A stretch of DNA of 32,000 bases from Chlamydiota bacterium (GCA_016196885.1 JACPWU010000058.1:94-32093), one strand, 5' to 3'. Positions 2,490 to 22,876 are shown, counted from the stretch's first letter. Translations and numbers: made by a program. Notes: generated by a model not told the origin, from the letters alone.

Positions 2490-2588
2490 TCGTCGTTCGT
2501 ATTTCGTTAAAAATGAGAAACAGATAACGAGTAACAACTGAATTTAGAATTTGCTACAATATTGCAAAATTGCTAGGAGACTTTGATT

Positions 2589-3335: not shown

Positions 3336-3355
3336 AAAATCAATAGGTAGAAATC

Positions 3356-8568: not shown

Positions 8569-9807
8569 ATGGCCAAGGTCATAGAAGTTAAAAACATTTC
8601 AAAACTTTATGCCCTGGGGGTGGTTCAATTCAACACCCTTCGGGATTCCTTGTTAGAGAGGTGGCGCCTCTGGAGAGGTGAGCGAAAGAGCCCTCTCGAG
8701 AGGTCGCTTTCTTCCAATACTTTTTGGGCTTTAAAAGATGTGAGCTTTTCTGTCGAGAGAGGGGAAATTGTCGGGCTCATTGGAAAAAATGCTGCTGGAA
8801 AATCCACGCTCTTAAGAATTTTATCCCACATTACGAAGCCTACCGAAGGACGGGCCATTCTTCGAGGGCGGGTGGGCTCGCTTTTAGAAATTGGAACAGG
8901 ATTTCATCCTGAATTGACCGGCAGGGAAAATATCTATCTCAATGGTGCCATTTTTGGGATGAGGAAGAGCGAGGTGAAAAGAAAGTTGGATGAAATAGTG
9001 GCCTTCGCTGAAATCGAGGCCTTTCTGGACACGCCTGTGAAGCGCTATTCCAGCGGGATGTATGTAAGATTGGCCTTCGCTGTCGCGGCCCATTTGGAGG
9101 CCGAGATCTTATTGGTAGATGAGGTACTGGCCGTCGGAGATATTTCTTTTCAGAGAAAATGTTTGGGAAAAATGGGGGATGTGGTGAAAGAGGGCAGAAC
9201 CATTTTGCTGGTGAGTCATCAAATGGCCGCTGTTGAAAATCTGTGTTCGAGGGCTCTTTTGCTGGAGAAGGGCCGTTTGACACTGGAGGGCTCCACAGAA
9301 GAGGTGATTAAACAATATTTGAAAGGCAATGGGCGATTGTCCGAAAAATTTTTTAAAGGGGAGGCGCAAGGGCATGTTCAAATCAAGATGACCCTGCTTT
9401 CAGAAGACGGCCATCCTGTAGATACCGTTCGTTGTGGCGAAGATGTCACTTTTGTCGTGGAAATCCACACTGAAATTCCTCTTCAGAAGGCAGGCCTTGG
9501 GATTGGTATTTCAGACATGTGGGGTCAGAGGATTGCAACCTTTCACACCCATTATCAGTGCGATTCTAAATGGGAAATTCAAGAGAAGGCGATTTTTAAA
9601 GTTACCTGGCCTGAGAATTTTTTATGCCCAGGGCCGTATTTGATCACGGCCAGTGTTTTTGAAGGGGAGGTCGCGATCAGTTATTGGCCGAATGCGGCCA
9701 CTTTAAACATAGCTCCGAGCGATTACTTTAAAACGGGAAAATTGCCCAATCCCAGTCATCAGGGATATGTTTTGGTCAAGGGAAAATGGGAAGTTAGAGA
9801 CCTCTGA
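8569..9807 (+). CDS. wzt: polysaccharide/O-antigen export ABC ATPase with C-terminal beta-sandwich extension (Wzt_C-like)
   Basis: Walker A GKNAAGKST, signature YSSGMYVRLAF, Walker B ILLVDE. About 150 extra C-terminal residues (HVQIKMTLLSEDGHPVDTVRCGEDVTFVVEIH...) sit where Wzt glycan-terminus-binding domains occur. The start abuts the wzm stop. Confidence 0.88.
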   Translation: MAKVIEVKNISKLYALGVVQFNTLRDSLLERWRLWRGERKSPLERSLSSNTFWALKDVSFSVERGEIVGLIGKNAAGKSTLLRILSHITKPTEGRAILRGRVGSLLEIGTGFHPELTGRENIYLNGAIFGMRKSEVKRKLDEIVAFAEIEAFLDTPVKRYSSGMYVRLAFAVAAHLEAEILLVDEVLAVGDISFQRKCLGKMGDVVKEGRTILLVSHQMAAVENLCSRALLLEKGRLTLEGSTEEVIKQYLKGNGRLSEKFFKGEAQGHVQIKMTLLSEDGHPVDTVRCGEDVTFVVEIHTEIPLQKAGLGIGISDMWGQRIATFHTHYQCDSKWEIQEKAIFKVTWPENFLCPGPYLITASVFEGEVAISYWPNAATLNIAPSDYFKTGKLPNPSHQGYVLVKGKWEVRDL

Positions 9808-9857
9808 AAAAAGCCCATCTTATTGATATTCCTTTTTATCTAAAGGCACGAAGCCAT

Positions 9858-11954
9858 ATGATCAAACGTTTCATCAAAAAAATCTTTCCTCGACGGTATC
9901 GCTTGCTTAAAAGTCCTATTCATCGCCTCGCCTCTTTCGATGAGGGATATTATTTGAGGCGTTATCCGGATGTGAAGGAAGCGGTTCTTCGAGGCCAGTA
10001 TGCCCTAGGTCTGGAGCATTTTTACACGGTCGGCCAGTTTGAGGGCCGCCGGCCGAACGCCCTTTGGAAAATTATTTTTCCTCAAGCAGGAATGACAAAG
10101 AGCAGTGAGAAAGGTAGATTTTTTCCTTCAACAAATCTCGATCTTCTCATCCCTTCCTCTCTCAATCCTGAGTTGAGCATTGTCATGGATGGCTCTGATG
10201 TCCATCAAAATATTTTTCTTCTTCTTTCATCTCTCTTGAGAGAAAAACTGGATTCTTTTGAAATCATAATCGTGAATGGTCAAGATAAAGAGGGGATGAA
10301 ACGGGTTCAGGGCCTCAAAATGATCTCACTTGAGAAGGGTCAATCTTTTTTCGAAAAGACAGTAGAAATCGTAAAAGGAACATATATTTTATTCTTAGCG
10401 GGAGAAATACGCCTCTTTGCAAAAAGTGTTTCCTCGGCTTTAGAAGTGATGAAATCCTCTGAAAGAATGGGTGCAGTGGGAGCGAAGATCATGGATGCAA
10501 GGGGAGTTTTATTAGAGGCGGGGGGAGTGATTTCACAACAAGGGTTGTGTGAGAGTCGTGGGTTTGGGGATTTACCTTTCCGTTCGCAGTATCTCTACAA
10601 AAAAGAAGTAGACTTTTTCTCCCCCTCTTTTTTTCTCACCCGAAAAGATTTTCTGATGAAGTATCAAGAGGCTTTGGCAAGAGATTGGGTCGGCTATTGC
10701 CTGAGGCTTCAAAAGGATGGATGGGAAATCGTTTATCATCCCTCTTCCATGGTGGTTTATTTTGGGGAGTCATTTTTGCAAAGTCAAAAAAAGTTTCAAC
10801 CCCCTGTGAGAAAGATTCAAAATAAAAAAAGGATTTTGTATTTAGATGATCGCATCCCTCACATCTTTCTAGGATCTGGCTTCCCCCGAACCAATGTCAT
10901 TTTAAAACTCATGGTCCAGATGGGATATTTTGTCACCTTTTATCCTAAAACAGATTCCTACGAAAAACTTCCCAGGATTTATCAGGACATTCCTTTAGAA
11001 GCAGAGCTCGTGGTAGACCGAGAGCTTACCCATTTTGAAAAATTTTTGTCTGGAAGAAAAGGCTTCTACGACATTCTGTTCGTCAGCCGTCCTCACAACA
11101 TGCAGACGATTCAGGAGCTGCGTCAAAAAAATCCAGATCTCTTTCGAAATCTAAAAATCATTTATGATGCTGAAGCGGTTTTTGGATTAAGGAAGGTGAG
11201 GGAAATGGAATTGAAGGGTAAACACTTTTCTGAAGAAGAAGTGAAAAAAATGATCTCAAAAGAGATCGAGATCACAAAGAATTGTGATGCCGTGATCTCC
11301 GTTTCAGAGAAAGAGGCCTCACTTTTTCGAAATCAGGGATGTCGTGATGTTCATGTCTTGGGACATGCGGTAGAGGTTTTACCCACCCCCCCTTCCTTTC
11401 ATGAAAGAAAAAATTTTTTATTCGTTGGACCTTTAAACTATTGTCATTCTCCCAATGCAGATGCCGTTCTTTGGTTTTCTCAAAAAATATTTCCTCTGGT
11501 TCTCAAGTCTCTGTCAGAAGAAGTAAACTTCACCCGGGTTGGGTATAATCAGTGCCGTATCATTGAAAGGTTGAAACATTCCAGAATCAGGCAATTGCCC
11601 AGAATAGAGGATTTGAAGGCAACCTATGATGCCTTTAAAATATTTGTGGTTCCCACCCGATTTTCGGCGGGCATCCCACTGAAGGTTTTGGAGGCTGCTG
11701 CCCATGGGATTCCTGTGGTGGCTACTCCCTTGGTAGCTGAGCAGTTGGGCTGGAAGAATGGGTACGAACTTTTGGTGGGACAGGATGAACAAAGATTCGC
11801 GGAACAATGTGTCCGATTGTATCAGGATGAGAAATTATGGAATCACATTCGTCAAAATGCACTTCACAGGGTTCAGCAAGATTGTTCGATGGAAAATTTT
11901 TCTGGGCGTCTTAAGATGGTTTTGGAAGAAACATTGAATAGCGTAAGAGTTTAG
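9858..11954 (+). CDS. multi-module glycosyltransferase (N-terminal YL..YPDV/HY..G..EGR motif, degenerate GT2-like middle, GT4/GT1-like C-terminus)
   Basis: 698 aa. The middle region contains GAKIMDARGVLLEAGGVI (GT2-type). The C-terminus has FVVPTRFSAGIPLKVLEAAAHGIPVVATP (GT4 E-x7-E-region type). Confidence 0.75.
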   Translation: MIKRFIKKIFPRRYRLLKSPIHRLASFDEGYYLRRYPDVKEAVLRGQYALGLEHFYTVGQFEGRRPNALWKIIFPQAGMTKSSEKGRFFPSTNLDLLIPSSLNPELSIVMDGSDVHQNIFLLLSSLLREKLDSFEIIIVNGQDKEGMKRVQGLKMISLEKGQSFFEKTVEIVKGTYILFLAGEIRLFAKSVSSALEVMKSSERMGAVGAKIMDARGVLLEAGGVISQQGLCESRGFGDLPFRSQYLYKKEVDFFSPSFFLTRKDFLMKYQEALARDWVGYCLRLQKDGWEIVYHPSSMVVYFGESFLQSQKKFQPPVRKIQNKKRILYLDDRIPHIFLGSGFPRTNVILKLMVQMGYFVTFYPKTDSYEKLPRIYQDIPLEAELVVDRELTHFEKFLSGRKGFYDILFVSRPHNMQTIQELRQKNPDLFRNLKIIYDAEAVFGLRKVREMELKGKHFSEEEVKKMISKEIEITKNCDAVISVSEKEASLFRNQGCRDVHVLGHAVEVLPTPPSFHERKNFLFVGPLNYCHSPNADAVLWFSQKIFPLVLKSLSEEVNFTRVGYNQCRIIERLKHSRIRQLPRIEDLKATYDAFKIFVVPTRFSAGIPLKVLEAAAHGIPVVATPLVAEQLGWKNGYELLVGQDEQRFAEQCVRLYQDEKLWNHIRQNALHRVQQDCSMENFSGRLKMVLEETLNSVRV

Positions 11955-11960
11955 CTTGTA

Positions 11961-12110
11961 TTTTCCATTCCTGTCATTCCCGCAGGCTTCAACGAAATAG
12001 CCCCTGTGGGGTAAGCGGGAATCCAAAAATGGATCCGTCCCCGAGAGTTTTAGTCGGGGATCCATCTATTTCGGGGATGACAAGGGACGGACACTTAGGA
12101 ATGGCAAAAC
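11961..12110. repeat. structured intergenic element with nested inverted repeats (REP/MITE-like)
   Basis: Outer inverted repeat CCATTCCT (11965-11972) / AGGAATGG (12097-12104). Also GTCATTCCC (11973-11981) / GGGGATGAC (12073-12081). Inner stems are TTCCCGC/GCGGGAA (11977-11983 / 12015-12021) and TCCCCGA/TCGGGGA (12038-12044 / 12054-12060). Confidence 0.5.
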
Positions 12111-12172
12111 CATAGGTCTTTTGAACTGAAGGGTGCAAGCTAAACCGTTATCCAATAACAAGGTGTAATACA

Positions 12173-13090
12173 ATGTCATACAGCATCGTTATTCCCAATT
12201 ACAATGGCTCTGAGATCATCGGGCCTTTGCTAGAACAAATAAAGACTTGGCTTGCCCAGTGGCCCGGCGAAGTCATTGTGGTGGATGATGCAAGCACGGA
12301 TGAGAGTGTTCGTTTCATGCAGGAGAAATTTCCCTTTGTGAAATTAATTTTACATCAGGTGAATGCGGGTTTCTCAAAGACCTCCAACGATGGGATTTCA
12401 GCAGCCCATTTTGATGAAATCCTTTTACTGAACAATGACACCCGTTTACTGGAAGGGAAAATTTTGGATCTCTTTGAACCTTTGAGAAAAGATCCGAATA
12501 CGTTTGTCGTTGTTCCCGTGATTGTAGGAGAAAAAGAGGGAAAGGAAATTTGCGAATCTTCGATGGAACTCATTTTGGGTGAAGGGGGATTTCACATTAG
12601 AAATCTGAGTGCCCCCGATGCCCATTTTCCCAAAAAGGATTTAAGCCCTATTCCTTATGGTACGGCTACGGCCTGCGCCTTTTCAAAGAGGAAATTCCTA
12701 GAGTTGGGAGGCTTTGAATCTTTTTTTGCCCCTGGCTATTACGAAGATGTGGACCTTTCTTTTAAGGCCTTGTCCAAAGAGTGGAAGGTCCTGATTCAGC
12801 CTTCCGTCAAATTTCGTCATTTTACCGCGACCACTTTTTCGAAATATTACTGTAATCGCATGGAAATTTTTGTGAGAAACTGGTGGCTGATGCAATGGCT
12901 TTGGCTGCCGACCTGGAGGCTCGCTTCTCATTTTTTATGGATTCCGTATCACATGATGAAATGTGTTTCGATGAGACAATTTTGGAGAATTCGGAGTTTT
13001 TTGAAGGCCTTGACCCGAATTCATCGTGTTTTTTCGCGGAGAAGAAAATTTATTCCAACAGAGACATTATTTAAAAGATTTTTAAAATGA
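12173..13090 (+). CDS. glycosyltransferase family 2
   Basis: YSIVIPNYNGSEII...VIVVDDASTDES and LLLNNDT are the classic GT2 N-terminal motifs. Confidence 0.85.
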   Translation: MSYSIVIPNYNGSEIIGPLLEQIKTWLAQWPGEVIVVDDASTDESVRFMQEKFPFVKLILHQVNAGFSKTSNDGISAAHFDEILLLNNDTRLLEGKILDLFEPLRKDPNTFVVVPVIVGEKEGKEICESSMELILGEGGFHIRNLSAPDAHFPKKDLSPIPYGTATACAFSKRKFLELGGFESFFAPGYYEDVDLSFKALSKEWKVLIQPSVKFRHFTATTFSKYYCNRMEIFVRNWWLMQWLWLPTWRLASHFLWIPYHMMKCVSMRQFWRIRSFLKALTRIHRVFSRRRKFIPTETLFKRFLK

Positions 13091-13270
13091 ATTAACTCCC
13101 CTCAGCCCAGCAAGGGAGGCTTTTCTACCAGTGGCAGTGCAAAGCCGACTGCGGTAGTAGATGTTTTTTTACAGCTCTCACCTTAAATAAAAGGGGGGCT
13201 CTGCGCTCTTTGGGTGAGGGGAGTTTTTTTACTCTCCCCTTTAGTTAAAAGGGGAGTCGGAGGGGTTAAG
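13091..13270. repeat. composite structured intergenic repeat (MITE-like; imperfect termini TTAACTCCCC / GGAGGGGTTAA)
   Basis: 11-bp perfect inverted repeat AACTCCCCTCA (13094-13104) / TGAGGGGAGTT (13215-13225). Hairpin CTCCCCTTT (13234-13242) / AAAGGGGAG (13248-13256). Both modules recur elsewhere in the window, at 31898-31965 and 31301-31335. Confidence 0.5.
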
Positions 13271-13280
13271 TTTTCCTTAT

Positions 13281-14336
13281 ATGAAAAAAATTCTTTTCCT
13301 AACCCACGGACCCATCGAGGCTGCCTCCAGCCGGGTGAGGGTGTATCAGTTTTTGCCCTATTTAGATGAGCGGGGGATCGCCTATGAGATTCTTCCGGCC
13401 TTGCCTTCCGATGTGTTCCAAAAATATTATCCTTGCTCAAGGTTATTCTCTAAGCTTGCTTTTTGGGGAATGCTTTTTGTGAGGCGATTGAAACATCTTT
13501 TGTTGCTCAAAAGATACGACGTCATTTTTTTGCAAAGGGAGGTAATGCCTTACCTGCCGCCTTTTTTTGAAAAAATCATTCGTCGAAAAGCCTCGCGCTT
13601 GATCTTTGATTTTGACGATGCCATTTATCTCTCCAGAAAAACAGGATTTTGGGCGCGTCTTCAGAGACAAAAAATTGAAAAGATCGTTTGTTGGAGCGAT
13701 CAAATCATTGTGGGAAATGAATATTTGGCCTCTTTTGCAAAATCACTCAACTCACATGTAAAAGTGATTCCTTCCTGTGTGGATACGGAGCGATATGTTC
13801 CGCTCGCTCAGAAAAATTCTCTTCCCATCGTTGTTTGGGTGGGGACTCCCAGTTCTCTTCCCTATTTGAAGATGATGCAGGGGATTTTAAGACGATTCAG
13901 TTCTCAAGAGAATTTTGTGATGCGGGTGGTGGGGGCAGATCCTCGAGACTCTCTGGGAATTCCGGTTCAATTTCTTCCTTGGGATCTCCAGAGAGAAGGG
14001 GGGGATTTGCGAACGGCAGACATTGGAATCATGCCGCTTGCAAACGGAGAAAGAGAGTGCGGTAAGTGTGGGTACAAATTGCTTCAATACATGGCCTGCG
14101 GGCTCCCTGTGATTGCATCCGATGTGGGCGTTAATAGCGAGATTGTTTTAGAAGGGGTCACTGGATTTCTCGTTTGCAGTGAAGCTGAATGGGAGGAGAA
14201 ACTCAAATTGCTTTTACGAGATGAAAAATTGAGAGAAAAAATGGGGGCTGAGGGAAGAAAGAGGGCAGAGTCTTTGTATTCTCTGAAGCGTTTTTCACAA
14301 GAATGGGTTTCGATGGTTGAAGAGGAGTCATCGTGA
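13281..14336 (+). CDS. glycosyltransferase family 4/1 (GT-B fold)
   Basis: 351 aa. The C-terminal half carries the GT1 motif region (KLLQYMACGLPVIASDVGVNSEIVLEGVTGFLV). Confidence 0.8.
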   Translation: MKKILFLTHGPIEAASSRVRVYQFLPYLDERGIAYEILPALPSDVFQKYYPCSRLFSKLAFWGMLFVRRLKHLLLLKRYDVIFLQREVMPYLPPFFEKIIRRKASRLIFDFDDAIYLSRKTGFWARLQRQKIEKIVCWSDQIIVGNEYLASFAKSLNSHVKVIPSCVDTERYVPLAQKNSLPIVVWVGTPSSLPYLKMMQGILRRFSSQENFVMRVVGADPRDSLGIPVQFLPWDLQREGGDLRTADIGIMPLANGERECGKCGYKLLQYMACGLPVIASDVGVNSEIVLEGVTGFLVCSEAEWEEKLKLLLRDEKLREKMGAEGRKRAESLYSLKRFSQEWVSMVEEESS

Positions 14337-15427
14337 AATACAAATTGTGTATCTTAACCACGGATTCATCGTGGGGCGGAACAGAAAAAATGATTGAGAC
14401 CCTTGTCAAAGGTCTTTTCACTTCTTATGAGATTTCTGTCGTAAGCTTGAGAGGGGATGGAACCCTGATCCATCGTGTTCGCCCCTTTTGCAAGGAAGCG
14501 GTCAATCTACAAATGCGTTCTAAATGGGATGTCGGGGCCCTTTACCGACTTTGGAAATTTTTAAAAAAGGGGCATTACGAAATTCTTCACACCTTTCTTT
14601 TTCACGCCAATATTTTGGGAAGAATCTTGGGCAAACTTTTGAGAGTCGCTGTCATCATTTCTTCTCAAAGAAATGTAGACCCTTGGCGAAAAATCCATCA
14701 TGTGTGGCTGGACCGCTGGACCTCTTCTTTCAGTGATGTTGTGATTTCGAATTCTAAGGCGGGTCAGGACCGCTTGGTCTCGATAGAAAAAATTCCGTCT
14801 CAAAAGATAGAAGTGGTTTACAACGGCTTGGATTTCTCTGAAATTCCTGTAAAAAATAAACATGTTTCATCAGATCATTATGGCGTGGGAATGGTTGGAA
14901 ATTTTTGGGGAATGAAGGGAGAGGCCAAGGGGTATTTTTACTTTATCGAGGCGGCTCAAAGGCTTTTGAAAATTCGGGAGGATGTTTATTTTTTGCTTGT
15001 GGGTGCGGGTGACAGGCAAAAATATGAAAAAAGGGTGAGCGAGCTTGGCCTCCAAAATCATTTTCGTTTTCTGGGCGGGGTCACTTCTATTTATGAGGCC
15101 TTGGCGTTGATGGATGTTTTTGTGCTTCCTTCCGAGTGGGAGGGTTTTCCTGTAAGCATCTTAGAGGCGATGGCGTTTGGCGTTCCCGTGATTGCAACAC
15201 AGGTAGGGGGCATTCCTGAACTGATTGAAAATGGTGAAACGGGCCTTTTGATTCCTCCTCGAGACCCTCTTGCGATCGAGGAGGCCATTTTAAGATTGTT
15301 GGACAATCCTGTTTTGAGGGAGCGATTGGTTAAGAACGCAAAGAAAATAGTTTCAGAGCATTTTCGACAAGAGAGAATGATTGAGGAGACTCAGAAAATT
15401 TATTTGAGGCTGTTAAATAGCTTATGA
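14333..15427 (+). CDS. glycosyltransferase family 4
   Basis: PSEWEGFPVSILEAMAFGVPVIATQVGGIPELIENGETGLL is the GT4 EX7E motif. The GTG start overlaps the upstream stop (GTGA). Confidence 0.85.
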   Translation: MKYKLCILTTDSSWGGTEKMIETLVKGLFTSYEISVVSLRGDGTLIHRVRPFCKEAVNLQMRSKWDVGALYRLWKFLKKGHYEILHTFLFHANILGRILGKLLRVAVIISSQRNVDPWRKIHHVWLDRWTSSFSDVVISNSKAGQDRLVSIEKIPSQKIEVVYNGLDFSEIPVKNKHVSSDHYGVGMVGNFWGMKGEAKGYFYFIEAAQRLLKIREDVYFLLVGAGDRQKYEKRVSELGLQNHFRFLGGVTSIYEALALMDVFVLPSEWEGFPVSILEAMAFGVPVIATQVGGIPELIENGETGLLIPPRDPLAIEEAILRLLDNPVLRERLVKNAKKIVSEHFRQERMIEETQKIYLRLLNSL

Positions 15428-16608
15428 CATCAAAAATTAAAGTCTGTCACGTGATTACCCGTTTGATCATCGGAGGGGCACAGGAGAATACCCTTTTCAC
15501 GGTAGAGGGTTTATCTCAAAAAAATGATTTTGACGTGACCTTGGTTTATGGTCCAGAAAAGGGACCCGAGGGAGATTTAAGTTTGAAAATGAAGTCGCCC
15601 GCGCGTTTTAGGACAAGGGTCGAACCCTTCTTGAGAAGGAATATTCATCCCCTCTATGATGCGATGGCCTTTTTGAGACTTCTTATTTTTTTTCGCAAAG
15701 AGCATTTTCAAATTGTGCACACGCACAGTTCCAAGGCTGGTATTTTGGCCCGCCTCGCTGCCTTTTGTGCAGGTGTTCCTGTCATTGTTCATACCATTCA
15801 TGGCCTCCCATTCCACGCCTTTCAAAATATTTGGGTGAATCGTTTGTACCGATGGCTTGAGCGTGTGTCGGCCCTTTGGACACAACGCATCATTGCTGTT
15901 GCGGATGCCATGACGCGGCAGGCAGTCCAGGCCAGGGTTGCCCCCCAAGAAAAATTTATGACCATTCACAGCGGGATGGACTTGGACGTTTTTATTCATC
16001 CCCCCAGAGATGTTCAAATGATCCGAGAAAAGTGGGGACTCTCTCCCACCGATTGGGTGGTGGGAAAAATTGCGCGGCTCTTTTATCTTAAAGGACATGA
16101 ATATCTCATTCAAGCGGCCTCAAAGGTGGTGAACGAATTTCCCAAGGTGAAATTTTTGCTGGTGGGAGATGGTATTTTAAAAGATGATTTAAAGAAAAAA
16201 ATTGCAGAGTCAGGATTGGAAAAAAATTTTATTTTTGCAGGCCTCGTTTCTCCCGAGCAAATCCCCTCCATGATTGCTATCATGGATGTGGTGGTGCATG
16301 TTTCTTTGCGGGAAGGCTTGGCCAAGGTTTTGCCTCAGAGCTTGGCTTCGGGCAAGCCCGTGATTGCCTTTGATTTGGACGGTGCCAATGAAGTGGTGCG
16401 GGATGGGGTGAATGGATTTCTCATTCGTCCTTTTGATATTTCTTCTTTAAGCGAGGCCATTTTAAAATTAAAAAGAGATCCAGGGCTTTCCCGTCGTTTA
16501 GGTCAACGGGGTCTTGAAACCGTGGATCCTTATTTTAGGAAAGAGTACATGGTGGGGAGGATTGAGGAAGTTTATAGGGGGTTGATAGGGATTGATGATA
16601 GAATATAA
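15424..16608 (+). CDS. glycosyltransferase family 4
   Basis: N-terminal VCHVITRLIIGGAQ and C-terminal SLREGLAKVLPQSLASGKPVIAFDLDGANEVVRDGVNGFL. The ATG overlaps the upstream stop (ATGA). Confidence 0.85.
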   Translation: MTSKIKVCHVITRLIIGGAQENTLFTVEGLSQKNDFDVTLVYGPEKGPEGDLSLKMKSPARFRTRVEPFLRRNIHPLYDAMAFLRLLIFFRKEHFQIVHTHSSKAGILARLAAFCAGVPVIVHTIHGLPFHAFQNIWVNRLYRWLERVSALWTQRIIAVADAMTRQAVQARVAPQEKFMTIHSGMDLDVFIHPPRDVQMIREKWGLSPTDWVVGKIARLFYLKGHEYLIQAASKVVNEFPKVKFLLVGDGILKDDLKKKIAESGLEKNFIFAGLVSPEQIPSMIAIMDVVVHVSLREGLAKVLPQSLASGKPVIAFDLDGANEVVRDGVNGFLIRPFDISSLSEAILKLKRDPGLSRRLGQRGLETVDPYFRKEYMVGRIEEVYRGLIGIDDRI

Positions 16609-16749
16609 AATGAGTTTAATAACCAATAACCAATTTCAAATGACAAATGAATAATCCAATGTCCAATTCCCAACGATTTAAGCCTTGGGAAATTAGCGTT
16701 GGTCCTTGGAATTAATTTGTCATTGATAATTGAGAATTTGTCATTCGCT
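16609..16749. repeat. AT-rich low-complexity intergenic repeats containing a thrice-repeated 10-mer
   Basis: AATGACAAAT at 16639-16648, with its reverse complement ATTTGTCATT at 16715-16724 and 16736-16745. Also CCAAT-type short repeats and a direct repeat CCTTGG(G)AA(A)TTA at 16683-16695 / 16704-16714. Confidence 0.45.
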
Positions 16750-17853
16750 ATGTGGTCACTCGTTTATATTTATCTTTTGCTCTTTTCTTTCGCGGTGTCT
16801 TGGCTTTGCGTTCATTTTTGCGCAAGGCTGGCTTTGAAATTAAACCTAATGGATGAGCCAGGGCCTCGGAAGATTCAGAAGAAGTCCATTCCTCTCTTGG
16901 GAGGTTTAGGGATGATCTTGGCGTTTGTAATCACGGTTTGGATCAGTTTAGTTTTATTAAAAATATTTTCTCATCATGCTTTTTTTCTCTCCCATTTTCC
17001 AACTGAGCTTCTCAGGTATGTGCCAGGTGTCTTGAAGGTTTCTCATAAGTTATGGGCCATTGCCTGGGGGAGTTTTCTCGTTTTTTTGGTGGGTTTGGTA
17101 GATGATTTTAGGGAACTGGGCGCTTGGCCAAAACTCATTGTTCAAATCATCGCTGCCAGCCTTCTCTTTTTTGCGGGGGTGCGAATCACCATTTTCTCTT
17201 CGCATTTGATGGTGAGTTTACCCTTGACGGTTCTGTGGGTGGTGGCCATCACCAATGCCTTTAATCTCTTGGACAACATGGACGGTCTTTCAGCGGGCAT
17301 TGCATGGATCGGTTGTTTTTTTCTCCTGGTGATTACCGCTTCTCAAAATCAGTATTTTGTGAGCGTTTTGATTTGCGTTTTGATGGGGGCCCTCGGGGGA
17401 TTCTTGAAGTTAAATTTTAATCCTGCGAAAATTTTCATGGGGGATGCCGGTAGCTATTGGATTGGGTATCTCATGGCCAGCGTGACCCTGTTGGCCACTT
17501 ATTATGGGAAGGGAAATCCCAATTTCTTCTCTGTTCTGAAACCCGTTTTTATCTTGGGGGTTCCCCTTTATGATCTTTGCAGTGTGATTCTGATTCGGCT
17601 CTATCAAGGACGCTCCATTTTTGAGGCAGATCGTCAGCATTTCTCTCATCGTTTGATCGCCTTGGGCATGGGACAAGGGGGGGCCGTTCTTTTCCTTTAC
17701 TTGCTCTCCTTTTCCTTTGGGACTTCCTCTCTCTTTCTCGAAAAAATTTCTAAATGGCAACTTTATTTTGTAGGACTGCAGGCGTTATCCTTTGTGTCAA
17801 TCATAGCCCTTCTTGAATATTTTGGACGCAAAAGGGAGAATTCGTCCACTTGA
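16750..17853 (+). CDS. wecA: polyprenyl-phosphate HexNAc-1-phosphate transferase (WecA/MraY family, initiating enzyme)
   Basis: VGLVDDFRELG, NAFNLLDNMDGLSAG and FMGDAGS are MraY/WecA motifs, and there are about 10-11 TM helices. I prefer the ATG at 16750 to the TTG at 16699, which lies inside the repeat region. Confidence 0.85.
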   Translation: MWSLVYIYLLLFSFAVSWLCVHFCARLALKLNLMDEPGPRKIQKKSIPLLGGLGMILAFVITVWISLVLLKIFSHHAFFLSHFPTELLRYVPGVLKVSHKLWAIAWGSFLVFLVGLVDDFRELGAWPKLIVQIIAASLLFFAGVRITIFSSHLMVSLPLTVLWVVAITNAFNLLDNMDGLSAGIAWIGCFFLLVITASQNQYFVSVLICVLMGALGGFLKLNFNPAKIFMGDAGSYWIGYLMASVTLLATYYGKGNPNFFSVLKPVFILGVPLYDLCSVILIRLYQGRSIFEADRQHFSHRLIALGMGQGGAVLFLYLLSFSFGTSSLFLEKISKWQLYFVGLQALSFVSIIALLEYFGRKRENSST

Positions 17854-19736
17854 TTTCAACTGCAAAGGCCCACTCGATTCTGGACCGTATTCTAAAAAAA
17901 ACATTGTCATACGGTCTGATCCTGCTGATGACTCTTCGTCCCTTGGTTTCAGGAATGGCAGAGCCGTCTTCAAATGTTTTCTTTTTTGTTGGAGCCCTCT
18001 TTCTCTTTTTCGTTTGGTTTTTAAAGTCTGTTTTAAGAGGCGAGATTTTTTTTCGAAAGACTCCCCTTGATTTTTTACACCTCATTTTTTTGTGCGCCCT
18101 CGGCTTGTCATGGTCTCAATCCATCCATCGCTATGAAGGGATTCCATTTATTCTCAATATGCTCACGGTCATTCTTGTTTACTGTTTAATCATTCAAACG
18201 CATGAAAATGAGGCAGATTCGGCCCGCCTGATTTTATTTTTATTGATGACGGCAAGTATCGTTAGCTTCTATGCCCTTTATCAAAGGCTTTTTGGGCTTC
18301 ATGAAACCTTTCAATATTTGGTAGAACACCATGTCCAGATTGAGAAATTAACCACGGCTTTTAAACATCGTTTAACGAGCCCTCGCGTCTTTGCAACATT
18401 GATTTATCCCAACGCCTTGGCTGGGTATTTGCTAAGCATTATTCCTTTAGCGCTTTCAACGATCCTCATTAAAAAAGGAGGGTTTTATCGGAAAGTGGCC
18501 ATTGTTTCTATCATGGGAGGTGTGTTGGTTTTTCTTTTGTGTGAGAAACCTCTTTGGATGATCGCGGGCGGGGTGCTGGGCATTTTTTATCCTTTTCTTT
18601 ACCTTCTTGCTTTTTTTCTGACCCTTTCAAAAGGGGGATGGGCCGTTTTCTTTTTGATGAGAGTCATGGCCTATTTTCTTTTTTATCGAGAAATCTCCCC
18701 TCGTTTTAAAAAACTATTTCTCTTGGGGGTTGGATTGTTAGAAATGGGGGGATGTTTTTTTCTCATGAGACATGATCCCGATTTTCTTTTCAAGGCTTTT
18801 AAATCTTTTGAGGTGCGCTGTCAGTATTGGCAGGCGGCAGGCGGGATGGTGAGGGATTATCTGGGTTTGGGGGTGGGACCTGCGGCCTTCGGTTCTCTTT
18901 ATGCGCATTATCAATTGCCTAGCGCAGAGGAGACGCGCATGGCGCACAATAATTTTTTGCAAGTGGCCTCGGAATTGGGAATCATCGGGGGTGTTGCTTT
19001 TCTTCTGATTTGGCTTGTTCCCCTCATCAAGGGTTTGAAGAAATTCCAATTTTCTTCTCCCATTGAGAGAGGAGCTCTTTTTGCAAGTTTAGCCTTCGTC
19101 CTGCATGGGCTCGTAGATTTTGATCTTTATGAGCCTGCCCTGGCGATGAATGCCTGGGCATTCTTGGCGCTTTTATCGTGCGGGCATTCGGAAAAAAGGC
19201 ATGGGTTTTCCTTTCGATGTGAGAGTTCCAAAATGAAGGGGGCTCTGATGATCGCGGGTCAAGTTGTGGCCGTTTCTTTGATTTTGCTCGTGCGGTCTTA
19301 TGATCAGGCTGAGAATTATTTTAGGCAGGCTGTCGAGGCCCGGGCTCAAAAAAAATGGGAAGAGGCCGGGTGGGCTGTGGAAAGATCTCTCCAATTTTGT
19401 CATTTGAATCCCCAAGCCTATGTCTTGAAGGCAACTCTCAACGAGCGTGAAAAAAAATGGCATGAAGCCATCGCTTCGTATGAAGAGGCCATCCAAAGAG
19501 ATTCACATAATCCCCTTTTTCCCTATCGTCAGTCGCTTCTTTATGAACGTTTGGAAAAAGAAGAGGGTAAAAGTTATGCTTCCCAGATTGAGGCGTGTTT
19601 AAAGAAAGCGATTTTTGATTATCCATCCCATGCCTCTTTGCATCTTGCCCTAGCCCATTTTTATCAAAGGGTTGGACGGCGTGAAGAGGCCTTGGTAGAA
19701 TATAAAGAAGCGACTCGCTTGGGTCGTAACCCCTAA
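17850..19736 (+). CDS. O-antigen ligase/polymerase (Wzy_C) family membrane protein with C-terminal TPR repeats
   Basis: Polytopic N-terminal region with the Wzy_C-type motif AHNNFLQVASELGIIGG. The C-terminal ~130 aa are TPR-like (AYVLKATLNEREKKWHEAIASYEEAIQRD..., LALAHFYQRVGRREEALVEYKEA). The TTG start overlaps the wecA stop (TTGA). Confidence 0.8.
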   Translation: MISTAKAHSILDRILKKTLSYGLILLMTLRPLVSGMAEPSSNVFFFVGALFLFFVWFLKSVLRGEIFFRKTPLDFLHLIFLCALGLSWSQSIHRYEGIPFILNMLTVILVYCLIIQTHENEADSARLILFLLMTASIVSFYALYQRLFGLHETFQYLVEHHVQIEKLTTAFKHRLTSPRVFATLIYPNALAGYLLSIIPLALSTILIKKGGFYRKVAIVSIMGGVLVFLLCEKPLWMIAGGVLGIFYPFLYLLAFFLTLSKGGWAVFFLMRVMAYFLFYREISPRFKKLFLLGVGLLEMGGCFFLMRHDPDFLFKAFKSFEVRCQYWQAAGGMVRDYLGLGVGPAAFGSLYAHYQLPSAEETRMAHNNFLQVASELGIIGGVAFLLIWLVPLIKGLKKFQFSSPIERGALFASLAFVLHGLVDFDLYEPALAMNAWAFLALLSCGHSEKRHGFSFRCESSKMKGALMIAGQVVAVSLILLVRSYDQAENYFRQAVEARAQKKWEEAGWAVERSLQFCHLNPQAYVLKATLNEREKKWHEAIASYEEAIQRDSHNPLFPYRQSLLYERLEKEEGKSYASQIEACLKKAIFDYPSHASLHLALAHFYQRVGRREEALVEYKEATRLGRNP

Positions 19737-19780
19737 CCCCTCCCATCACCCCGGAAGGGGCCGTTTCACGGAGGGAGGGG
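19734..19780. repeat. short structured repeat overlapping the stop codon (possible terminator-like element without U-tract)
   Basis: CCCCTCCC (19737-19744) / GGGAGGGG (19773-19780) enclose CCCC-GGAA-GGGG (19749-19760). It contains TAACCCCTCC (19734-19743), the reverse complement of the GGAGGGGTTA 10-mer found at 13259-13268 and 31326-31335. Confidence 0.4.
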
Positions 19781-19834
19781 AAAACAAGAGTTTTCGGACG
19801 GTCTCAATAAAACGGGAGGAAAAAAGGAATTCAC

Positions 19835-20275
19835 ATGTCTAAAATTTTTGTCATCCATGGCCCCAATCTGGCGCTTCTCGGAGAGCGAGAGCCGGAAATT
19901 TACGGCCACGTTTCTTTGAAGGCCATTAATGAGGCCATGAAAAAAAAGGCGCAAGACTTGAACTTTCAGATTGATTTTTTTCAATCGGATCATGAAGGAG
20001 AAATTGTTTCTAAAATTGGGAGCCTTATAAAATTAGGGATTGATTATTTAATCATCAACCCTGCAGCCTACACCCATACCAGTGTCGCGATTCGGGATGC
20101 GATTGGCGCAGTGAAAATTCCTACGATTGAAGTTCATCTTTCCAATGTTTATGCCCGTGAAGAATTCCGCCATAAGTCTTTGATCGCCCCTGTAGCTGTG
20201 GGGCAGATCTCCGGCTTTGGAGTTCAAAGTTATATTTTGGCCATGGAGGCGATTGCGACGCTCGGGTTGAAATAG
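19835..20275 (+). CDS. aroQ: type II 3-dehydroquinate dehydratase
   Basis: IFVIHGPNLALLGEREPEIYG, INPAAYTHTSVAIRDA and EVHLSNVYAREEFRH are AroQ signatures. Confidence 0.92.
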   Translation: MSKIFVIHGPNLALLGEREPEIYGHVSLKAINEAMKKKAQDLNFQIDFFQSDHEGEIVSKIGSLIKLGIDYLIINPAAYTHTSVAIRDAIGAVKIPTIEVHLSNVYAREEFRHKSLIAPVAVGQISGFGVQSYILAMEAIATLGLK

Positions 20276-20469
20276 TGACAAAGCGAATACGGCGGTTTCT
20301 GAAATTATTCTGTGGTTGGTCTCTTCTTGCTATTGGAATAGTCGGTTTATTCCTTCCCTTTCTTCAAGGGATTCTCATGATCGTGAGTGGTTTGGCACTC
20401 TTAGCGACAGAATACCCTTGGGCAAAGGGCTGGCTTGAGGGAATCAAAAAGAAGATAAAGAAAAAATGA
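20275..20469 (+). CDS. small two-TM membrane protein, PGPGW-like
   Basis: 64 aa. IGIVGLFLPFLQGILMIVSGLALLATEYPWAKGWL resembles the PGPGW family, but LPFLQG replaces PGPG. The GTG start overlaps the aroQ stop and the stop overlaps the next start (ATGA). Confidence 0.5.
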   Translation: MTKRIRRFLKLFCGWSLLAIGIVGLFLPFLQGILMIVSGLALLATEYPWAKGWLEGIKKKIKKK

Positions 20470-21509
20470 AGACGAAAGTCATCGCCGTTCTAGGGATGCA
20501 TCGAAGCGGAACTTCTGTGATTACTCGTGCCCTGAATTTAGGGGGGGTCTATTTGGGTGAGCCAGGTGATCTCATGGAAGGTGCTTCAGATAATTCCGAA
20601 GGTTTTTGGGAACACAAGGGGATCGTAGATCTTAACGAGCGGATTTTACAGGCCCTCAAAAGGACATGGGACAGTGTTCTCCCGCTTCCTCACGAGTGGC
20701 ATCTTTCGAAAGACTTTCAACCGTTCAAATCCGAGATGGTGAGACTGATCAAAAGTTGTTTTTTGAATCGTCCCCTTTGGGGATGGAAGGATCCACGAAC
20801 CTCTTTAACCTTTGATCTTTGGAAAGAGGCCCTTCGTGAATTGGGGATGGACTGTGTCTCTCTCGTTATGATTCGAAATCCTTTAGACGTCGCAAAATCT
20901 CTTTTGAAACGGAATGGTTTTTCTCAAGGTAAATCATTTGGGATGTGGCTTCATTACAACCTTTCTATTCTTCAAACGACCCAAGGGCTTCAGCGGACCT
21001 TTCTCTTCTATGATCTATTTCTGGAAAATTGGGAAAAGGAAATGAAAAATTGTTTTTCAAAAATGGGTCTAGATTGGCCCCGTGAAAACAATGTTTTGAA
21101 TGAAGAAATGAATGCGTTGATTCGCCTGGACCTTCGCCACAGCCAATCAAAATTTGAGGAGCTCAAAAAAAGAGAGGCCTCTCTTCCCCTTGTCACTGTA
21201 TATGAATTTCTTGAAATGCTGAGTCAGTCCTCTCAAGACTCCGTGTTTCAAATGAAAATAGAAACAGGGTGTAAAGACTTCTTGAACTATGCCCGTTATT
21301 TTCAAGAAGATATAGAATCTCTCTGGAAAGAAAAACAGCAATGTCAGATACTTGGCCAACATCTTTTGAAAGTAGAAAAGGCATTGTTGGAAGCGCAACA
21401 GGCACTCATCCTTCAACAAAAGGAGCTCCAGGCATTTTTGAATTCCCGCAGTTGGAAACTCACAGCACCTCTGAGGATGTTCTCTCGCCTCTTAAGGTTT
21501 AGGAAATGA
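20466..21509 (+). CDS. sulfotransferase family protein with C-terminal coiled coil
   Basis: VLGMHRSGTSVITR (5'-PSB-like P-loop) and VMIRNPLDVAKSLLKR (3'-PB-like RxPxDxxxS). The C-terminal ~60 aa are heptad-like and Q/L/K/E-rich, followed by SRSWKLTAPLR. Confidence 0.75.
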   Translation: MKTKVIAVLGMHRSGTSVITRALNLGGVYLGEPGDLMEGASDNSEGFWEHKGIVDLNERILQALKRTWDSVLPLPHEWHLSKDFQPFKSEMVRLIKSCFLNRPLWGWKDPRTSLTFDLWKEALRELGMDCVSLVMIRNPLDVAKSLLKRNGFSQGKSFGMWLHYNLSILQTTQGLQRTFLFYDLFLENWEKEMKNCFSKMGLDWPRENNVLNEEMNALIRLDLRHSQSKFEELKKREASLPLVTVYEFLEMLSQSSQDSVFQMKIETGCKDFLNYARYFQEDIESLWKEKQQCQILGQHLLKVEKALLEAQQALILQQKELQAFLNSRSWKLTAPLRMFSRLLRFRK

Positions 21510-21573
21510 CGCGAAGTGTCATTTCTGAGACAAAAGTATCCCTTTTTTCTTTAGACTCCTGTTGAAACGAAAG

Positions 21574-21582
21574 TGCTATAAT
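21574..21582 (+). promoter_or_regulatory. candidate extended -10 promoter (TGcTATAAT)
   Basis: TGCTATAAT at 21574-21582. There is no good -35 at 17 nt. It would give a leader of about 150 nt for the 21740 gene. Confidence 0.3.
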
Positions 21583-21641
21583 TATCCTAACCTGATAAGA
21601 GAGATAAAATAAGAGAAGCAGAGATGAGACCTTTTTTCTTG

Positions 21642-21717
21642 AGTCCACAGAGGGTCGTCTAAAATCCACGGGACAGTGGTTTCGTGGACTATGGACTATC
21701 GACTGTGGACTTTTTTT
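21642..21717 (+). terminator. leader hairpin plus U-tract (attenuator-like or terminator)
   Basis: AGTCCACA (21642-21649) / TGTGGACT (21704-21711) and GTCG/CGAC (21654-57 / 21700-03), followed by T7 (21711-21717). Inner hairpin TCCACG (21665-70) / CGTGGA (21683-88). GTGGACT-like segments repeat three times, allowing alternative pairings. Confidence 0.4.
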
Positions 21718-21739
21718 AAAGTAAATAGGAGATGATGCC

Positions 21740-22876
21740 ATGATCAGCTTTCGACAAATAGAAGAATTGATCAACATGAAAACAGATTCTCTCCCCTTGG
21801 TCAGTTTTTATTTAGGCATGGAGGGGAGCCGTTATTCAAAAAAGAATTGCGAAAATGCCTTGAAGGATTTGATGAAAGAAAGAGAGAAGGATATTCAGAA
21901 TTTTGAAAAGAATAAAAATCATAAACTCTCTTTAGAAAAAGATTTTGAAAAAATTCGTCAATATGTGAAAAATGAATTGGATTGGAAAGGGAAAAAAGGT
22001 GTGGCCATTTTTTCTTCTTCCTCTATGAATTTCTGGCAAGTTTATTTTTTGCCCAGTTCTGTGAAAAATACTTTGGTCATTGATCATACACCTTACATTC
22101 GTCCGTTGATTGCCCTTTTTGATGAATATCGCCGATTTTGCATGGTCTTGGTGGATAAATCCAAGGCGAGAATTTTTGAGGTGTTCTTGGGCGAAATTGA
22201 AGAACATACAGAGTTTACAGATGCCTTGCCTCGAAAAGCCAAAGCAGGGGGCTGGAAGGGATATGAAGAAAATCGTATTCAGCGGCATTTAACAGAAGAG
22301 GTACGGAAGCATTTTAAAAAGGTTGCGGATTCACTTACGGATCTTTTTAAGTTGCATCATTTTGATTGGTTGATTTTAGGAGGGCATCGGGCAGAGTTTC
22401 CTGAGTTTGAGAAAGAGCTACGTCCTTTTTTAGAGGACAGAATTGTGGCTCGTTTGGAAATGGATTTACGCGCTTCTCAGGAAAATATTTTGGAGAAGGC
22501 GCTGAAGGTTGAGAAGGAGATTTCCAAAGAGCATGGCGAGACTTCTGTGAAAAATCTTTTAGAACTCACAGGAGAAAGGCAAGCCGTGACAGGCGTTCTC
22601 GGAACTTTAACAGCTTTTCGAAGAGGGCAGGTTCACAGCCTTGTGGTCAGCCGCGATTATCAGGTGCCTGGAATGCGGTGTTTGAAATGCGGTTATTTGG
22701 ATCAAGAACATAAGAATTGTCCTCAGTGTAAAGAGCCTTTACAGGCGATTCCTGATTTGGTGGACGATTTGGTAGAGGCAGCCGTCACTCAAGGGTGTAA
22801 GGTTGAGTATGTTTCTGGAAATGGTCGGGATCGTCAGTGGGGTGGGATCGGGGCGATTTTGAGGTTTAAAGGTTGA
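21740..22876 (+). CDS. bacterial eRF1/Pelota-like protein (baeRF-type) with GGW in place of GGQ and a zinc-ribbon insert
   Basis: The M-domain-like stretch RFCMVLVDKSKARIFEV...ALPRKAKAGGWKG aligns with eRF1 YGFIVMDGSGALFG...DLPKKHGRGGQS. The C-domain has AVTGVLGTLTAFRRGQVHSLVVS and a terminal GGIGAILRF (eRF1/Pelota GGIGGILRY-type). CLKCG...CPQC sits at the mini-domain position. RBS AGGAGA at 21727-21732. Confidence 0.7.
   Translation: MISFRQIEELINMKTDSLPLVSFYLGMEGSRYSKKNCENALKDLMKEREKDIQNFEKNKNHKLSLEKDFEKIRQYVKNELDWKGKKGVAIFSSSSMNFWQVYFLPSSVKNTLVIDHTPYIRPLIALFDEYRRFCMVLVDKSKARIFEVFLGEIEEHTEFTDALPRKAKAGGWKGYEENRIQRHLTEEVRKHFKKVADSLTDLFKLHHFDWLILGGHRAEFPEFEKELRPFLEDRIVARLEMDLRASQENILEKALKVEKEISKEHGETSVKNLLELTGERQAVTGVLGTLTAFRRGQVHSLVVSRDYQVPGMRCLKCGYLDQEHKNCPQCKEPLQAIPDLVDDLVEAAVTQGCKVEYVSGNGRDRQWGGIGAILRFKG

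Follow-up and report, generated by a model that had tools for sequence, protein, structure and literature searches.

The protein of 347 amino acids (aa) encoded at positions 20466-21509 (+) of a 32,000-nucleotide stretch of DNA from a Chlamydiota bacterium (GCA_016196885.1, JACPWU010000058.1:94-32093; hereafter, the window) is probably a chain terminator of the WbdD type. It would act on the glycan specified by the genes located at 7714-19736 by adding sulfate to the non-reducing end of the chain. We assign a probability of about 0.6 to this reading, which combines sequence comparison with analogy to characterised systems, and we infer that the sulfate is placed at a terminal rather than an internal position. 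The new element would be the sulfate chemistry of the catalytic head, since the coiled-coil terminator is itself of a known kind.

Three caps have been described that stop chain growth and license export: methyl, methyl-phosphate and Kdo, 3-deoxy-D-manno-octulosonic acid (PMC9445017, PMC11231755). The chains of Klebsiella O1 end in pyruvate, which is dispensable for chain length or export (PMC11231755). WbdD from Escherichia coli O8 is the prototype of the methyltransferase chain terminators (PMC3482155). The WbdD proteins combine N-terminal catalytic sites with a coiled coil acting as a ruler, and their C-terminal helix associates with the membrane and contains a site that recruits the polymerase (PMC11231755, PMC3482155). 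The hallmarks of capped systems are a coiled-coil protein and an exporter ATPase, Wzt, containing a carbohydrate-binding module (PMC11231755).

Head, stalk and tail of the 347-residue protein

The catalytic head (about residues 1-255; 20466-21230, +) was delimited from the AlphaFold model, the Foldseek matches and the homologues. It is most likely a sulfotransferase dependent on 3'-phosphoadenosine-5'-phosphosulfate (PAPS), the activity being predicted from sequence comparison and structural modelling. The protein has 1762 homologues at E ≤ 1e-3, several of which contain the PF13469 or PF00685 domain. These domains are borne by homologues displaying 34-45% identity, and many homologues pass the threshold of Pfam Sulfotransfer_3. 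The two motifs of the PAPS-binding type that had been recognised by inspection of the DNA (hereafter, the sequence-only reading) are present. They correspond to the 5'-phosphosulfate-binding loop, GMHRSGTS (residues 10-17; 20493-20516, +), found in the alignment of 28 homologues, and to the 3'-phosphate-binding motif, RNPLDVAKS (residues 137-145; 20874-20900, +), supported by the alignment and by a profile comparison with SULT7A1. The alignment revealed that H12-R-S-G-T-S17, W105, W107, K108, P110, R137, P139, S145, and H225 are invariant, including the key residues of both motifs. The family profile aligned vvRnPldvakS with IVRNPKDTAVS, the canonical 3'-phosphate-binding motif of SULT7A1 (RNPKDxxxS type). 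The AlphaFold model was obtained with high confidence (pLDDT 91.6, pTM 0.84), and the top 45 Foldseek matches in the PDB were all PAPS sulfotransferases (best E 1.2e-5). The matches include tyrosylprotein sulfotransferases, CurM and olefin-synthase domains, cytosolic sulfotransferases, and Stf0 (E 1e-5 to 4e-3). Together, the confident model, the structural matches, the alignment with SULT7A1 and the homologues passing Sulfotransfer_3 support the sulfotransferase identity proposed at the outset. The solved enzymes (3AP1/8W5Z, CurM 4GBM, olefin-synthase 4GOX, Stf0 1TEX) share with the window protein the fold (Foldseek probability about 1.0) and the two PAPS motifs. They differ from it by their low identity (10-18%), by the lack of a coiled-coil stalk or tail, and by their substrates, which are proteins, polyketide intermediates or trehalose.

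The head is followed by a single uninterrupted helix extending from residues 259 to 325 (67 residues; 21240-21440, +; DSSP on the AlphaFold model), which is the predicted coiled-coil stalk, and then by two short helices. One heptad position is hydrophobic along the whole helix (I F F L C L L L L), and the coiled-coil portion is predicted to span about 40-67 residues. The C-terminal coiled coil, originally estimated at ~60 residues, is thus recovered in the model as one 67-residue helix with a continuous heptad stripe. The modifying head is N-terminal to the predicted coiled coil (head 1-255, helix 259-325), as the terminator architecture requires. In 47 tail-bearing homologues, the spacer separating the conserved LRHS motif from the tryptophan of the tail comprises 83 to 349 residues (median 102). 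The spacer of the window protein comprises 106 residues, and its stalk is therefore short in comparison to those of the long-stalk homologues (up to 349 residues). This variation of stalk length, about four-fold among the homologues, is as expected if the stalk acted as a ruler. In three Bacillota homologues, from Paenibacillus and Cohnella (P0084, P0093, and P0116; 518-589 aa), the head and the stalk are set apart by an additional segment of ~100-200 residues, which may be comparable to the carbohydrate-binding-like domain of the Klebsiella O7 terminator (PMC11231755).

The stalk is followed by a conserved tail, NSRSWKLTAPLR (residues N326-R337; 21441-21476, +), identified by the family alignment and by BLASTP against O8 WbdD. 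The family consensus of the tail is SxSWKITxPLR. The protein ends with the basic and hydrophobic sequence MFSRLLRFRK (21477-21509, +, stop codon included). Among the 47 homologues, the residues located after the tail are mostly basic or hydrophobic and their number ranges from 4 to 18 in 45 cases, with 37 and 41 residues in the other two. The protein with 41 residues (P0008) runs on into a hydrophobic stretch resembling a transmembrane segment. By analogy with WbdD, the C-terminal end could act as a membrane-proximal anchor.

The O8 cluster of E. coli IAI1 (NC_011741.1) comprises, in this order, wzm, wzt, a gene annotated as 'class I SAM-dependent methyltransferase' (SAM, S-adenosylmethionine), which encodes WbdD, and the gene for the large glycosyltransferase WbdA. 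The wbdD gene (L210, 43456-44733, -) encodes a 425-aa protein (WP_000535779.1) in which a methyltransferase head and a coiled coil are followed by NSRSWRITQPLR, within the surrounding sequence LHNSRSWRITQPLRWLSLQRQLL. BLASTP comparison of the C-terminus of the window protein with O8 WbdD detected 10 identities in 15 positions (E 2e-5). Since O8 WbdD bears the same tail after its coiled coil, the window protein has the non-catalytic scaffold of WbdD combined with another head. The resemblance to WbdD, initially noted as a similarity of architecture, therefore proved to be partial homology. Both proteins are stand-alone polypeptides in which the modifying head is N-terminal and is followed by a coiled coil of ~65 residues, the motif NSRSW(K/R)(I/L)TxPLR and a basic C-terminal region, and the Wzt partner of each has a carbohydrate-binding module at its C-terminus. 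They differ by the head, which is a SAM methyltransferase in WbdD and a PAPS sulfotransferase in the window protein, so that the cap would be a sulfate rather than an O-methyl group. They also differ by the number of residues after the tail (~100 versus 10) and by the position of the gene, which is not adjacent to wzt in the window.

Glycan loci encoding the sulfotransferase and its homologues

All genes located between positions 7714 and 19736 of the window are on the + strand. The first two encode the exporter of the ATP-binding cassette (ABC) family, namely Wzm, the ABC-2 permease (7714-8568; Pfam ABC2_membrane 7e-21), and Wzt, the ATPase (8569-9807; ABC_tran 1.4e-21), whose C-terminus forms a carbohydrate-binding module (about 9352-9807; Wzt_C 2.3e-12). 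The nearest solved relative of the latter module is the carbohydrate-binding domain of Aquifex aeolicus Wzt (E 1.5e-3). The Wzt_C score and the A. aeolicus match confirm that, as the sequence-only reading had it, the Wzt encoded upstream has a domain of the cap-binding type. The following genes encode a 698-aa two-module glycosyltransferase with a C-terminal domain of glycosyltransferase family 4 (GT4) type, which is the candidate polymerase (9858-11954), one enzyme of family 2 (GT2; 12173-13090) and three of family GT4 (13281-14336, 14333-15427, and 15424-16608), all four assigned by Pfam. The last two genes encode an initiating transferase of the WecA/MraY family (16699-17853; Glycos_transf_4 2.3e-34) and an O-antigen-ligase-like membrane protein with C-terminal TPR repeats (17850-19736; Wzy_C 4.5e-15, several TPR families). 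Neither a methyltransferase nor a second tail-bearing protein was found in the window locus, yet Wzt has a carbohydrate-binding module. The sulfotransferase is therefore the only capping candidate in this locus.

The contigs encoding nine close homologues, 34-49% identical to the window protein, were read for neighbouring genes. A wzm/wzt locus was present around all nine genes, and the Wzt_C module was present in seven of the nine loci. Co-occurrence with the exporter, whose absence had been named beforehand as an observation that would count decisively against the proposal, was thus found throughout the close homologues. The sulfotransferase gene is located directly after wzt and before glycosyltransferase genes (three multi-module) in five of the nine loci (L004, L006, L089, L211, and L213), an order that matches wzm-wzt-wbdD-wbdA of E. 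coli. The order wzm-wzt-terminator-polymerase recurs in L004, L006, and L211. Locus L004 comprises genes for adenosine 5'-phosphosulfate (APS) kinase, Wzm, Wzt (Wzt_C), the sulfotransferase, and a GT2+GT1 protein. Locus L006 comprises wzm, a sulfate transporter gene, an APS kinase gene, cysD, and cysNC, followed, after other genes, by wzt (Wzt_C), the sulfotransferase gene, and a gene for a 1216-aa glycosyltransferase. In L211, wzm and wzt (Wzt_C) are followed by the sulfotransferase gene and by genes for multi-module glycosyltransferases. The sulfotransferase gene also follows wzm and wzt in L213 (Wzt_C) and L089 (Wzt without a carbohydrate-binding module). It is separated from wzt (Wzt_C) by methyltransferase and APS kinase genes in L005, by two glycosyltransferase genes in L088, and by one open reading frame (ORF) in L087, where a second sulfotransferase gene lies between wzm and wzt (Wzt_C). 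In L212, the sulfotransferase gene is located 3.4 kb upstream from wzm/wzt, and Wzt is devoid of the carbohydrate-binding module. Genes for PAPS supply (APS kinase or cysD/cysN) are present in L004-L007, L009, and L012, which gives indirect support to sulfate transfer by these enzymes. The 698-aa glycosyltransferase of the window aligns along its full length with the 739-aa GT2+GT1 protein encoded directly after the sulfotransferase in L004 (32% identity, E 5e-108). This match indicates that the two loci are homologous, with the sulfotransferase gene of the window having been relocated to the last position of the cluster, after aroQ.

In species-representative genomes, at least 593 stretches were found to encode relatives of the protein, the best of which is 40% identical to it. 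The relatives originate from at least 593 species-level genomes, including those of Deltaproteobacteria, Nitrospirota, Verrucomicrobia, Planctomycetes, Acidobacteria, Chloroflexi, Actinomycetota, and Bacillota. Neighbourhoods were counted, with our own profiles, for the 80 best of these more distant, species-level loci. Genes for wzm/wzt were present within 10 kb in 17 of these 80 loci, with a concentration among the most similar ones. As genomes contain few wzm/wzt loci, a random gene would be expected to have one within 10 kb in about 1-2% of cases. A sulfotransferase gene of some form starts right after wzt in L012, L018, L024, L036, L068, L074, and L082. In four of these loci (L012, L036, L068, and L074), the gene located immediately after wzt encodes a 939-1161-aa fusion comprising the sulfotransferase, a coiled coil, and GT2+GT2 or GT2+GT4 modules. 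The relatives encoded by L023 and L030 likewise have two glycosyltransferase modules after a sulfotransferase and a coiled coil. The short forms found in Bacillota (280-300 aa), which are devoid of stalk and tail, displayed no wzm/wzt linkage.

The sequence-only reading had linked the tail to other polysaccharide-modifying enzymes, and it was indeed found to end or join many glycan enzymes. In L006, it is also present at the end of two WbsX glycosyltransferases and within a multi-glycosyltransferase of 1221 aa. It is likewise terminal in GT2 or GT4 enzymes from L010, L089, and L213, and in L023 and L030 it connects the sulfotransferase module to the glycosyltransferase modules. In some clusters, three or four different enzymes end in the tail (L006, 10001-17870; L213, 4863-12561; L089, 10001-12021). 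The presence of a common tail within clusters suggests a docking or membrane-anchoring element of a multi-enzyme complex, possibly involving mixed coiled coils. We also scanned metagenomes with the exact DNA pattern of WKITAPLR, which retrieved at least 120 stretches (L090-L209). Among the matches listed, to which the following counts also refer, 94 of the 111 in-frame hits had the full [S/T/A]x[S/T/C/A]WKITAPLR context. Pfam analysis of the 75 tail-bearing ORFs of at least 250 aa identified GT2 domains in 25 of them, SAM methyltransferases in about 14, FkbM-type methyltransferases and GT4 domains in five each, Methyltransf_24 in four, sulfotransferases in three, and pyruvyltransferases, RgpF and 2-oxoglutarate (2OG) oxygenases in two each. 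Our own profile detected the sulfotransferase in 10 of the 111 in-frame ORFs. The tail was thus rejected as a signature specific of terminators since ordinary glycosyltransferases also bear it. No Pfam model covering SxSW(K/R)ITxPLR was present in the copy of the database used. Homologue P0026 has precomputed accessions outside this copy (PF27881 and PF28019), which may describe the tail motif.

The distribution of the tail bears on an alternative reading, in which the sulfotransferase is tethered by its stalk and tail in the assembly complex and decorates internal residues of the chain, with no role in length control or export. Such a role would fit with the occurrence of the tail in ordinary glycosyltransferases of the same loci (WbsX in L006, GT2/GT4 enzymes in L089 and L213), with the lack of a carbohydrate-binding module in Wzt from L089, L212, L068, and L074, and with the presence of small methyltransferases able to supply a methyl cap in L005, L006, L211, L212, and L213. 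We nonetheless consider internal decoration unlikely. The head-stalk-tail order and the location of the gene after wzt match those of WbdD, and in all characterised systems the terminator is the modifying enzyme that a coiled coil bears at its far end (PMC11231755). The window locus offers no other candidate for capping, though its Wzt has a carbohydrate-binding module. In addition, the sulfotransferases of L087 and L213 that are devoid of stalk are better candidates for internal sulfation, although the homologue of the window protein in L087 is itself devoid of the tail. Two or three sulfotransferases are encoded by some of the homologous loci (L087, 5054-7806; L213, 8205-9089; L088, 1249-3819), and L088 also encodes a sulfatase. 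Among the sulfotransferases of L213, only the homologue of the window protein has a stalk and a tail, which suggests a split between internal sulfation and end-capping. In L087, this homologue is the longest of the sulfotransferases (340 aa versus 283 and 297) but has no tail.

Several observations weigh against a terminator adding a sulfate cap. The 347-aa protein itself scored below the threshold of Pfam Sulfotransfer_3 (E 0.16; 12.7 bits versus a cut-off of 27), and nothing significant was returned by an NCBIfam scan or by a PDB sequence search. Direct assignment of the protein to a family by Pfam, NCBIfam and PDB sequence searches thus failed, all scores being sub-threshold. Because the protein alone is below every curated threshold, the sulfotransferase assignment rests on its homologues, on the motifs and profile, and on the predicted fold. 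The gene is located 10.7 kb downstream from wzt, on the same strand and behind aroQ, and is therefore not adjacent to the transporter genes. Profiles for APS kinase, cysD, and cysN detected no gene for PAPS synthesis in the 32-kb window. The Wzt proteins from L089 and L212, and those from the fusion loci L068 and L074, are devoid of the carbohydrate-binding module, and a small methyltransferase, which might supply the cap, is encoded by L005, L006, L211, L212, and L213. Since the tail is shared with ordinary glycosyltransferases, it would mark membership of the assembly complex rather than termination as such. Finally, alignment of 12 carbohydrate-binding modules of Wzt proteins linked to sulfotransferases revealed no shared sulfate-binding signature or basic pocket. 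These modules are mostly 10-25% identical, except for the trio from L018, L024, and L006 (41-52%), and are too divergent to support a 'sulfate-specific' clade.

The aroQ operon, PAPS supply and neighbouring genes

The sulfotransferase gene is the last of three overlapping genes, and the sequence-only reading had pointed to this partnership as unusual for a gene of the shikimate pathway. The first gene, aroQ (19835-20275, +), encodes a protein matching Pfam DHquinase_II (3e-58) and scoring above the threshold of the NCBIfam aroQ equivalog TIGR01088 (194.6 bits versus a cut-off of 169.85). On the basis of these profiles, AroQ is a bona fide type II 3-dehydroquinate dehydratase. The second gene (20275-20469, +) encodes a 64-aa membrane protein with two helices, which belongs to the PGPGW family (PF09656, 5.2e-14; 52 bits versus a gathering threshold of 23.3) and scores below the cut-off of the related model TIGR02611 (30.3 versus 70.6). 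The TAG stop codon of aroQ (20273-20275) and the GTG start codon of the 64-aa ORF (20275-20277) have one nucleotide in common (TAGTG, 20273-20277). The TGA stop codon of the latter ORF (20467-20469) overlaps the ATG codon of the 347-aa ORF at 20466 (ATGA, 20466-20469; 4 nucleotides). The same three ORFs were called by NCBI on contig JACOUD010000009.1 from a metagenome-assembled genome labelled 'Chlamydiae bacterium' (GCA_016178005.1). The ORF check and these calls confirm the gene layout and both overlaps at the positions initially proposed.

Overlaps of 4 nucleotides are ordinary in the window, no more than expected by chance, as they are found at five or more additional co-directional junctions (14333/14336, 15424/15427, 17850/17853, 25353/25356, and one more according to the NCBI calls). 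Among the 86 loci scanned with our own profiles, an aroQ or PGPGW gene was present beside the sulfotransferase gene only in contigs of the same organism (L001 and L002). A conserved functional link was therefore rejected. Thus, the partnership with aroQ is real as an overlapping unit and has no evident functional meaning. The link is probably incidental because it is confined to this organism and 4-nucleotide overlaps are routine here, and the aroQ and PGPGW genes are probably co-transcribed neighbours with no role in the glycan pathway.

The three-gene unit starts 98 bp after the last glycan gene, and the interval separating the sulfotransferase gene from the gene downstream contains a long hairpin with a U-run after it (21641-21717, +). 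RNA folding of the 21500-21745 region gave a free energy of -72 kcal/mol (z = -3.8), a value that was not reached by any of 200 shuffled sequences. The hairpin is an imperfect 72-nucleotide structure rich in GTGGAC/GTCCAC repeats, and it has no Rfam match. The folding results indicate that the hairpin and U-run are probably an intrinsic terminator ending the aroQ-PGPGW-sulfotransferase transcript, which was missed by a simple consensus scan. In the 19500-21900 region, consensus scans for promoters and terminators gave counts that were not above those of shuffled sequence. Folding of the gap upstream from aroQ gave no signal (z = -0.45), and Rfam and tRNA scans of the whole window were empty.

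This compact organisation of three overlapping genes, set 98 bp apart from the glycan genes and closed by a strong hairpin and U-run, could also indicate that the aroQ-PGPGW-sulfotransferase operon is a functional unit of its own and that the sulfotransferase has a substrate other than the glycan and unconnected with it, for example a small molecule, a lipid or a protein. We regard this possibility as highly improbable, since all nine close homologues are encoded inside wzm/wzt glycan loci, aroQ and the PGPGW gene accompany the sulfotransferase gene only in L001 and L002 among the loci scanned, 4-nucleotide overlaps are routine in the window, and a stalk combined with a tail belongs to glycan-assembly enzymes.

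The supply of PAPS raises another possibility, namely that the protein is catalytically idle, for instance because no PAPS is made, and is kept as a scaffold of the complex or as a relic displaced from wzt. The absence of APS kinase and ATP sulfurylase genes from the window would be consistent with this since several homologous loci encode such enzymes locally (APS kinase or cysD/cysN inside L004-L007, L009, and L012). The displacement of the gene from wzt, in contrast to its position in homologous loci, and the labelling of the source as Chlamydiae point in the same direction. However, genes for PAPS synthesis are often unlinked, as none is located within 10 kb of the sulfotransferase gene in L018, L024, L088, and L211. 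All invariant residues of the PAPS-binding sites are intact, the ORF is full length and the conserved tail is present. An identical protein is also encoded by three separate assemblies of the same organism (GCA_016178005.1, SRR12113387, and SRR12113416). Loss of activity is accordingly judged improbable, and a functional terminator is the reading that we retain.

Upstream from the exporter genes, homologues of rmlA, rmlB, and rmlD (2583-5222, +; NTP_transferase 1e-55, GDP_Man_Dehyd/Epimerase 9e-83, and RmlD_sub_bind 2e-92) would provide deoxythymidine diphosphate (dTDP)-sugar precursors. No ORF of at least 100 aa in the window corresponds to rmlC, encoding the dTDP-sugar epimerase. The 6-deoxyhexose may therefore not be L-rhamnose, unless rmlC is located elsewhere. 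A gene for an LPG_synthase_TM protein without a synthase domain (1593-2489; Pfam 5.6e-38) is located just upstream from the rml genes. A gene of the deoxyhypusine synthase family (6588-7667, -; Pfam DS, 9e-96), the sole minus-strand gene in this region, is located between, on one side, the rml genes and a gene for a transporter of the major facilitator superfamily (MFS) and, on the other side, wzm. Downstream from the hairpin, the gene at 21740-22876 encodes a bacterial homologue of the archaeo-eukaryotic release factor 1 (Pfam baeRF_family10, 1.3e-35) that has CxxC pairs in its C-terminal part and is unrelated to the glycan locus. The window thus contains a complete ABC-transporter-dependent glycan locus, including an O-antigen-ligase-like gene, in a genome labelled Chlamydiae. 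Classical Chlamydiaceae produce only a short Kdo-containing lipooligosaccharide. The glycan locus is therefore unexpected, if the taxonomic label is right.

Proposed mechanism and comparison with known systems

In the mechanism that we propose from homology, the WecA-like enzyme would start the glycan on undecaprenyl phosphate, and the GT2 and GT4 enzymes and the 698-aa glycosyltransferase would extend the chain at the cytoplasmic face of the membrane. The sulfotransferase would oligomerise via its stalk, and the tail would hold the protein at the membrane, in the assembly complex, so that the stalk and tail would set the head at a fixed distance from the membrane-bound polymerase. Upon reaching the head, the growing non-reducing end would receive sulfate from PAPS, and extension would be blocked. 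The carbohydrate-binding module of Wzt would then recognise the capped end, the chain would be exported by Wzm/Wzt, and the ligase-like Wzy_C/TPR protein would attach it to an acceptor. A tentative generalisation, to which we give somewhat less than even odds, is that a widespread family of sulfotransferases built on the stalk-and-tail scaffold of WbdD installs a sulfate cap read by the Wzt module, the tail being the element by which all these assembly machines, the E. coli prototype included, dock to the membrane or to the complex.

In addition to O8 WbdD, three sets of systems can be compared to the window protein. WbdD from E. coli O9a and Klebsiella pneumoniae O3 is a kinase-methyltransferase in which a coiled coil similarly bears the terminating activity at its far end. 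The polymerase is recruited by the C-terminus, close to the membrane, and Wzt reads the cap with its carbohydrate-binding module (PMC3482155, PMC11231755). These enzymes differ from the window protein, which has a single sulfotransferase head, by the presence of two catalytic domains and by the formation of an anionic methyl-phosphate cap. The ruler function has been established by experiments in their case and is only inferred for the window protein. WbbB from K. pneumoniae O12 and Raoultella terrigena and ORF6 from K. pneumoniae O7 have the one-polypeptide format observed in the relatives encoded by L012, L036, L068, L074, L023, and L030. Their terminator modules are a beta-Kdo glycosyltransferase (WbbB) and a methyltransferase-kinase (ORF6), whereas the window protein is a stand-alone sulfotransferase. 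The third comparison involves ORF19 ('Hyp') from Aeromonas salmonicida, a sulfotransferase-domain gene located directly after wzt and before a gene for a WbbB-like multi-glycosyltransferase (PMC4483657). The product of ORF19 is much shorter (216 aa) and therefore probably has no stalk; it is likened to the window protein by its description rather than by its sequence. ORF19 was left unexplained by its authors, as no sulfate was seen in the O-antigen structure (PMC4483657). It is the sole trace of such an enzyme that we found in the literature: our full-text search, which did not extend to the bioinformatic census of terminators that Mann, Kimber and Whitfield published in 2019 (Glycobiology 29:822) and that may already list such candidates, detected no sulfate cap and no sulfotransferase acting as a terminator.

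If our reading is correct, the sulfate cap adds a strongly anionic chemistry to the methyl, methyl-phosphate and Kdo caps, and implies the existence of carbohydrate-binding modules recognising sulfated sugars. It may also explain puzzling sulfotransferase genes located beside wzt, as in A. salmonicida, since one sulfate per chain end is easily missed. The idea is testable because the family is large and has cultured members such as Paenibacillus sedimenti and P. oryzisoli, in which the gene is located directly after wzt. Interchangeable heads on a single stalk-and-tail scaffold could make it possible to engineer the length and end-groups of glycans, and the tail motif provides a simple sequence handle for identifying enzymes of the assembly complex in unannotated genomes. 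As for the organism itself, an uncultured bacterium labelled Chlamydiae, our analysis suggests that its surface glycan is controlled in length and possibly sulfated.

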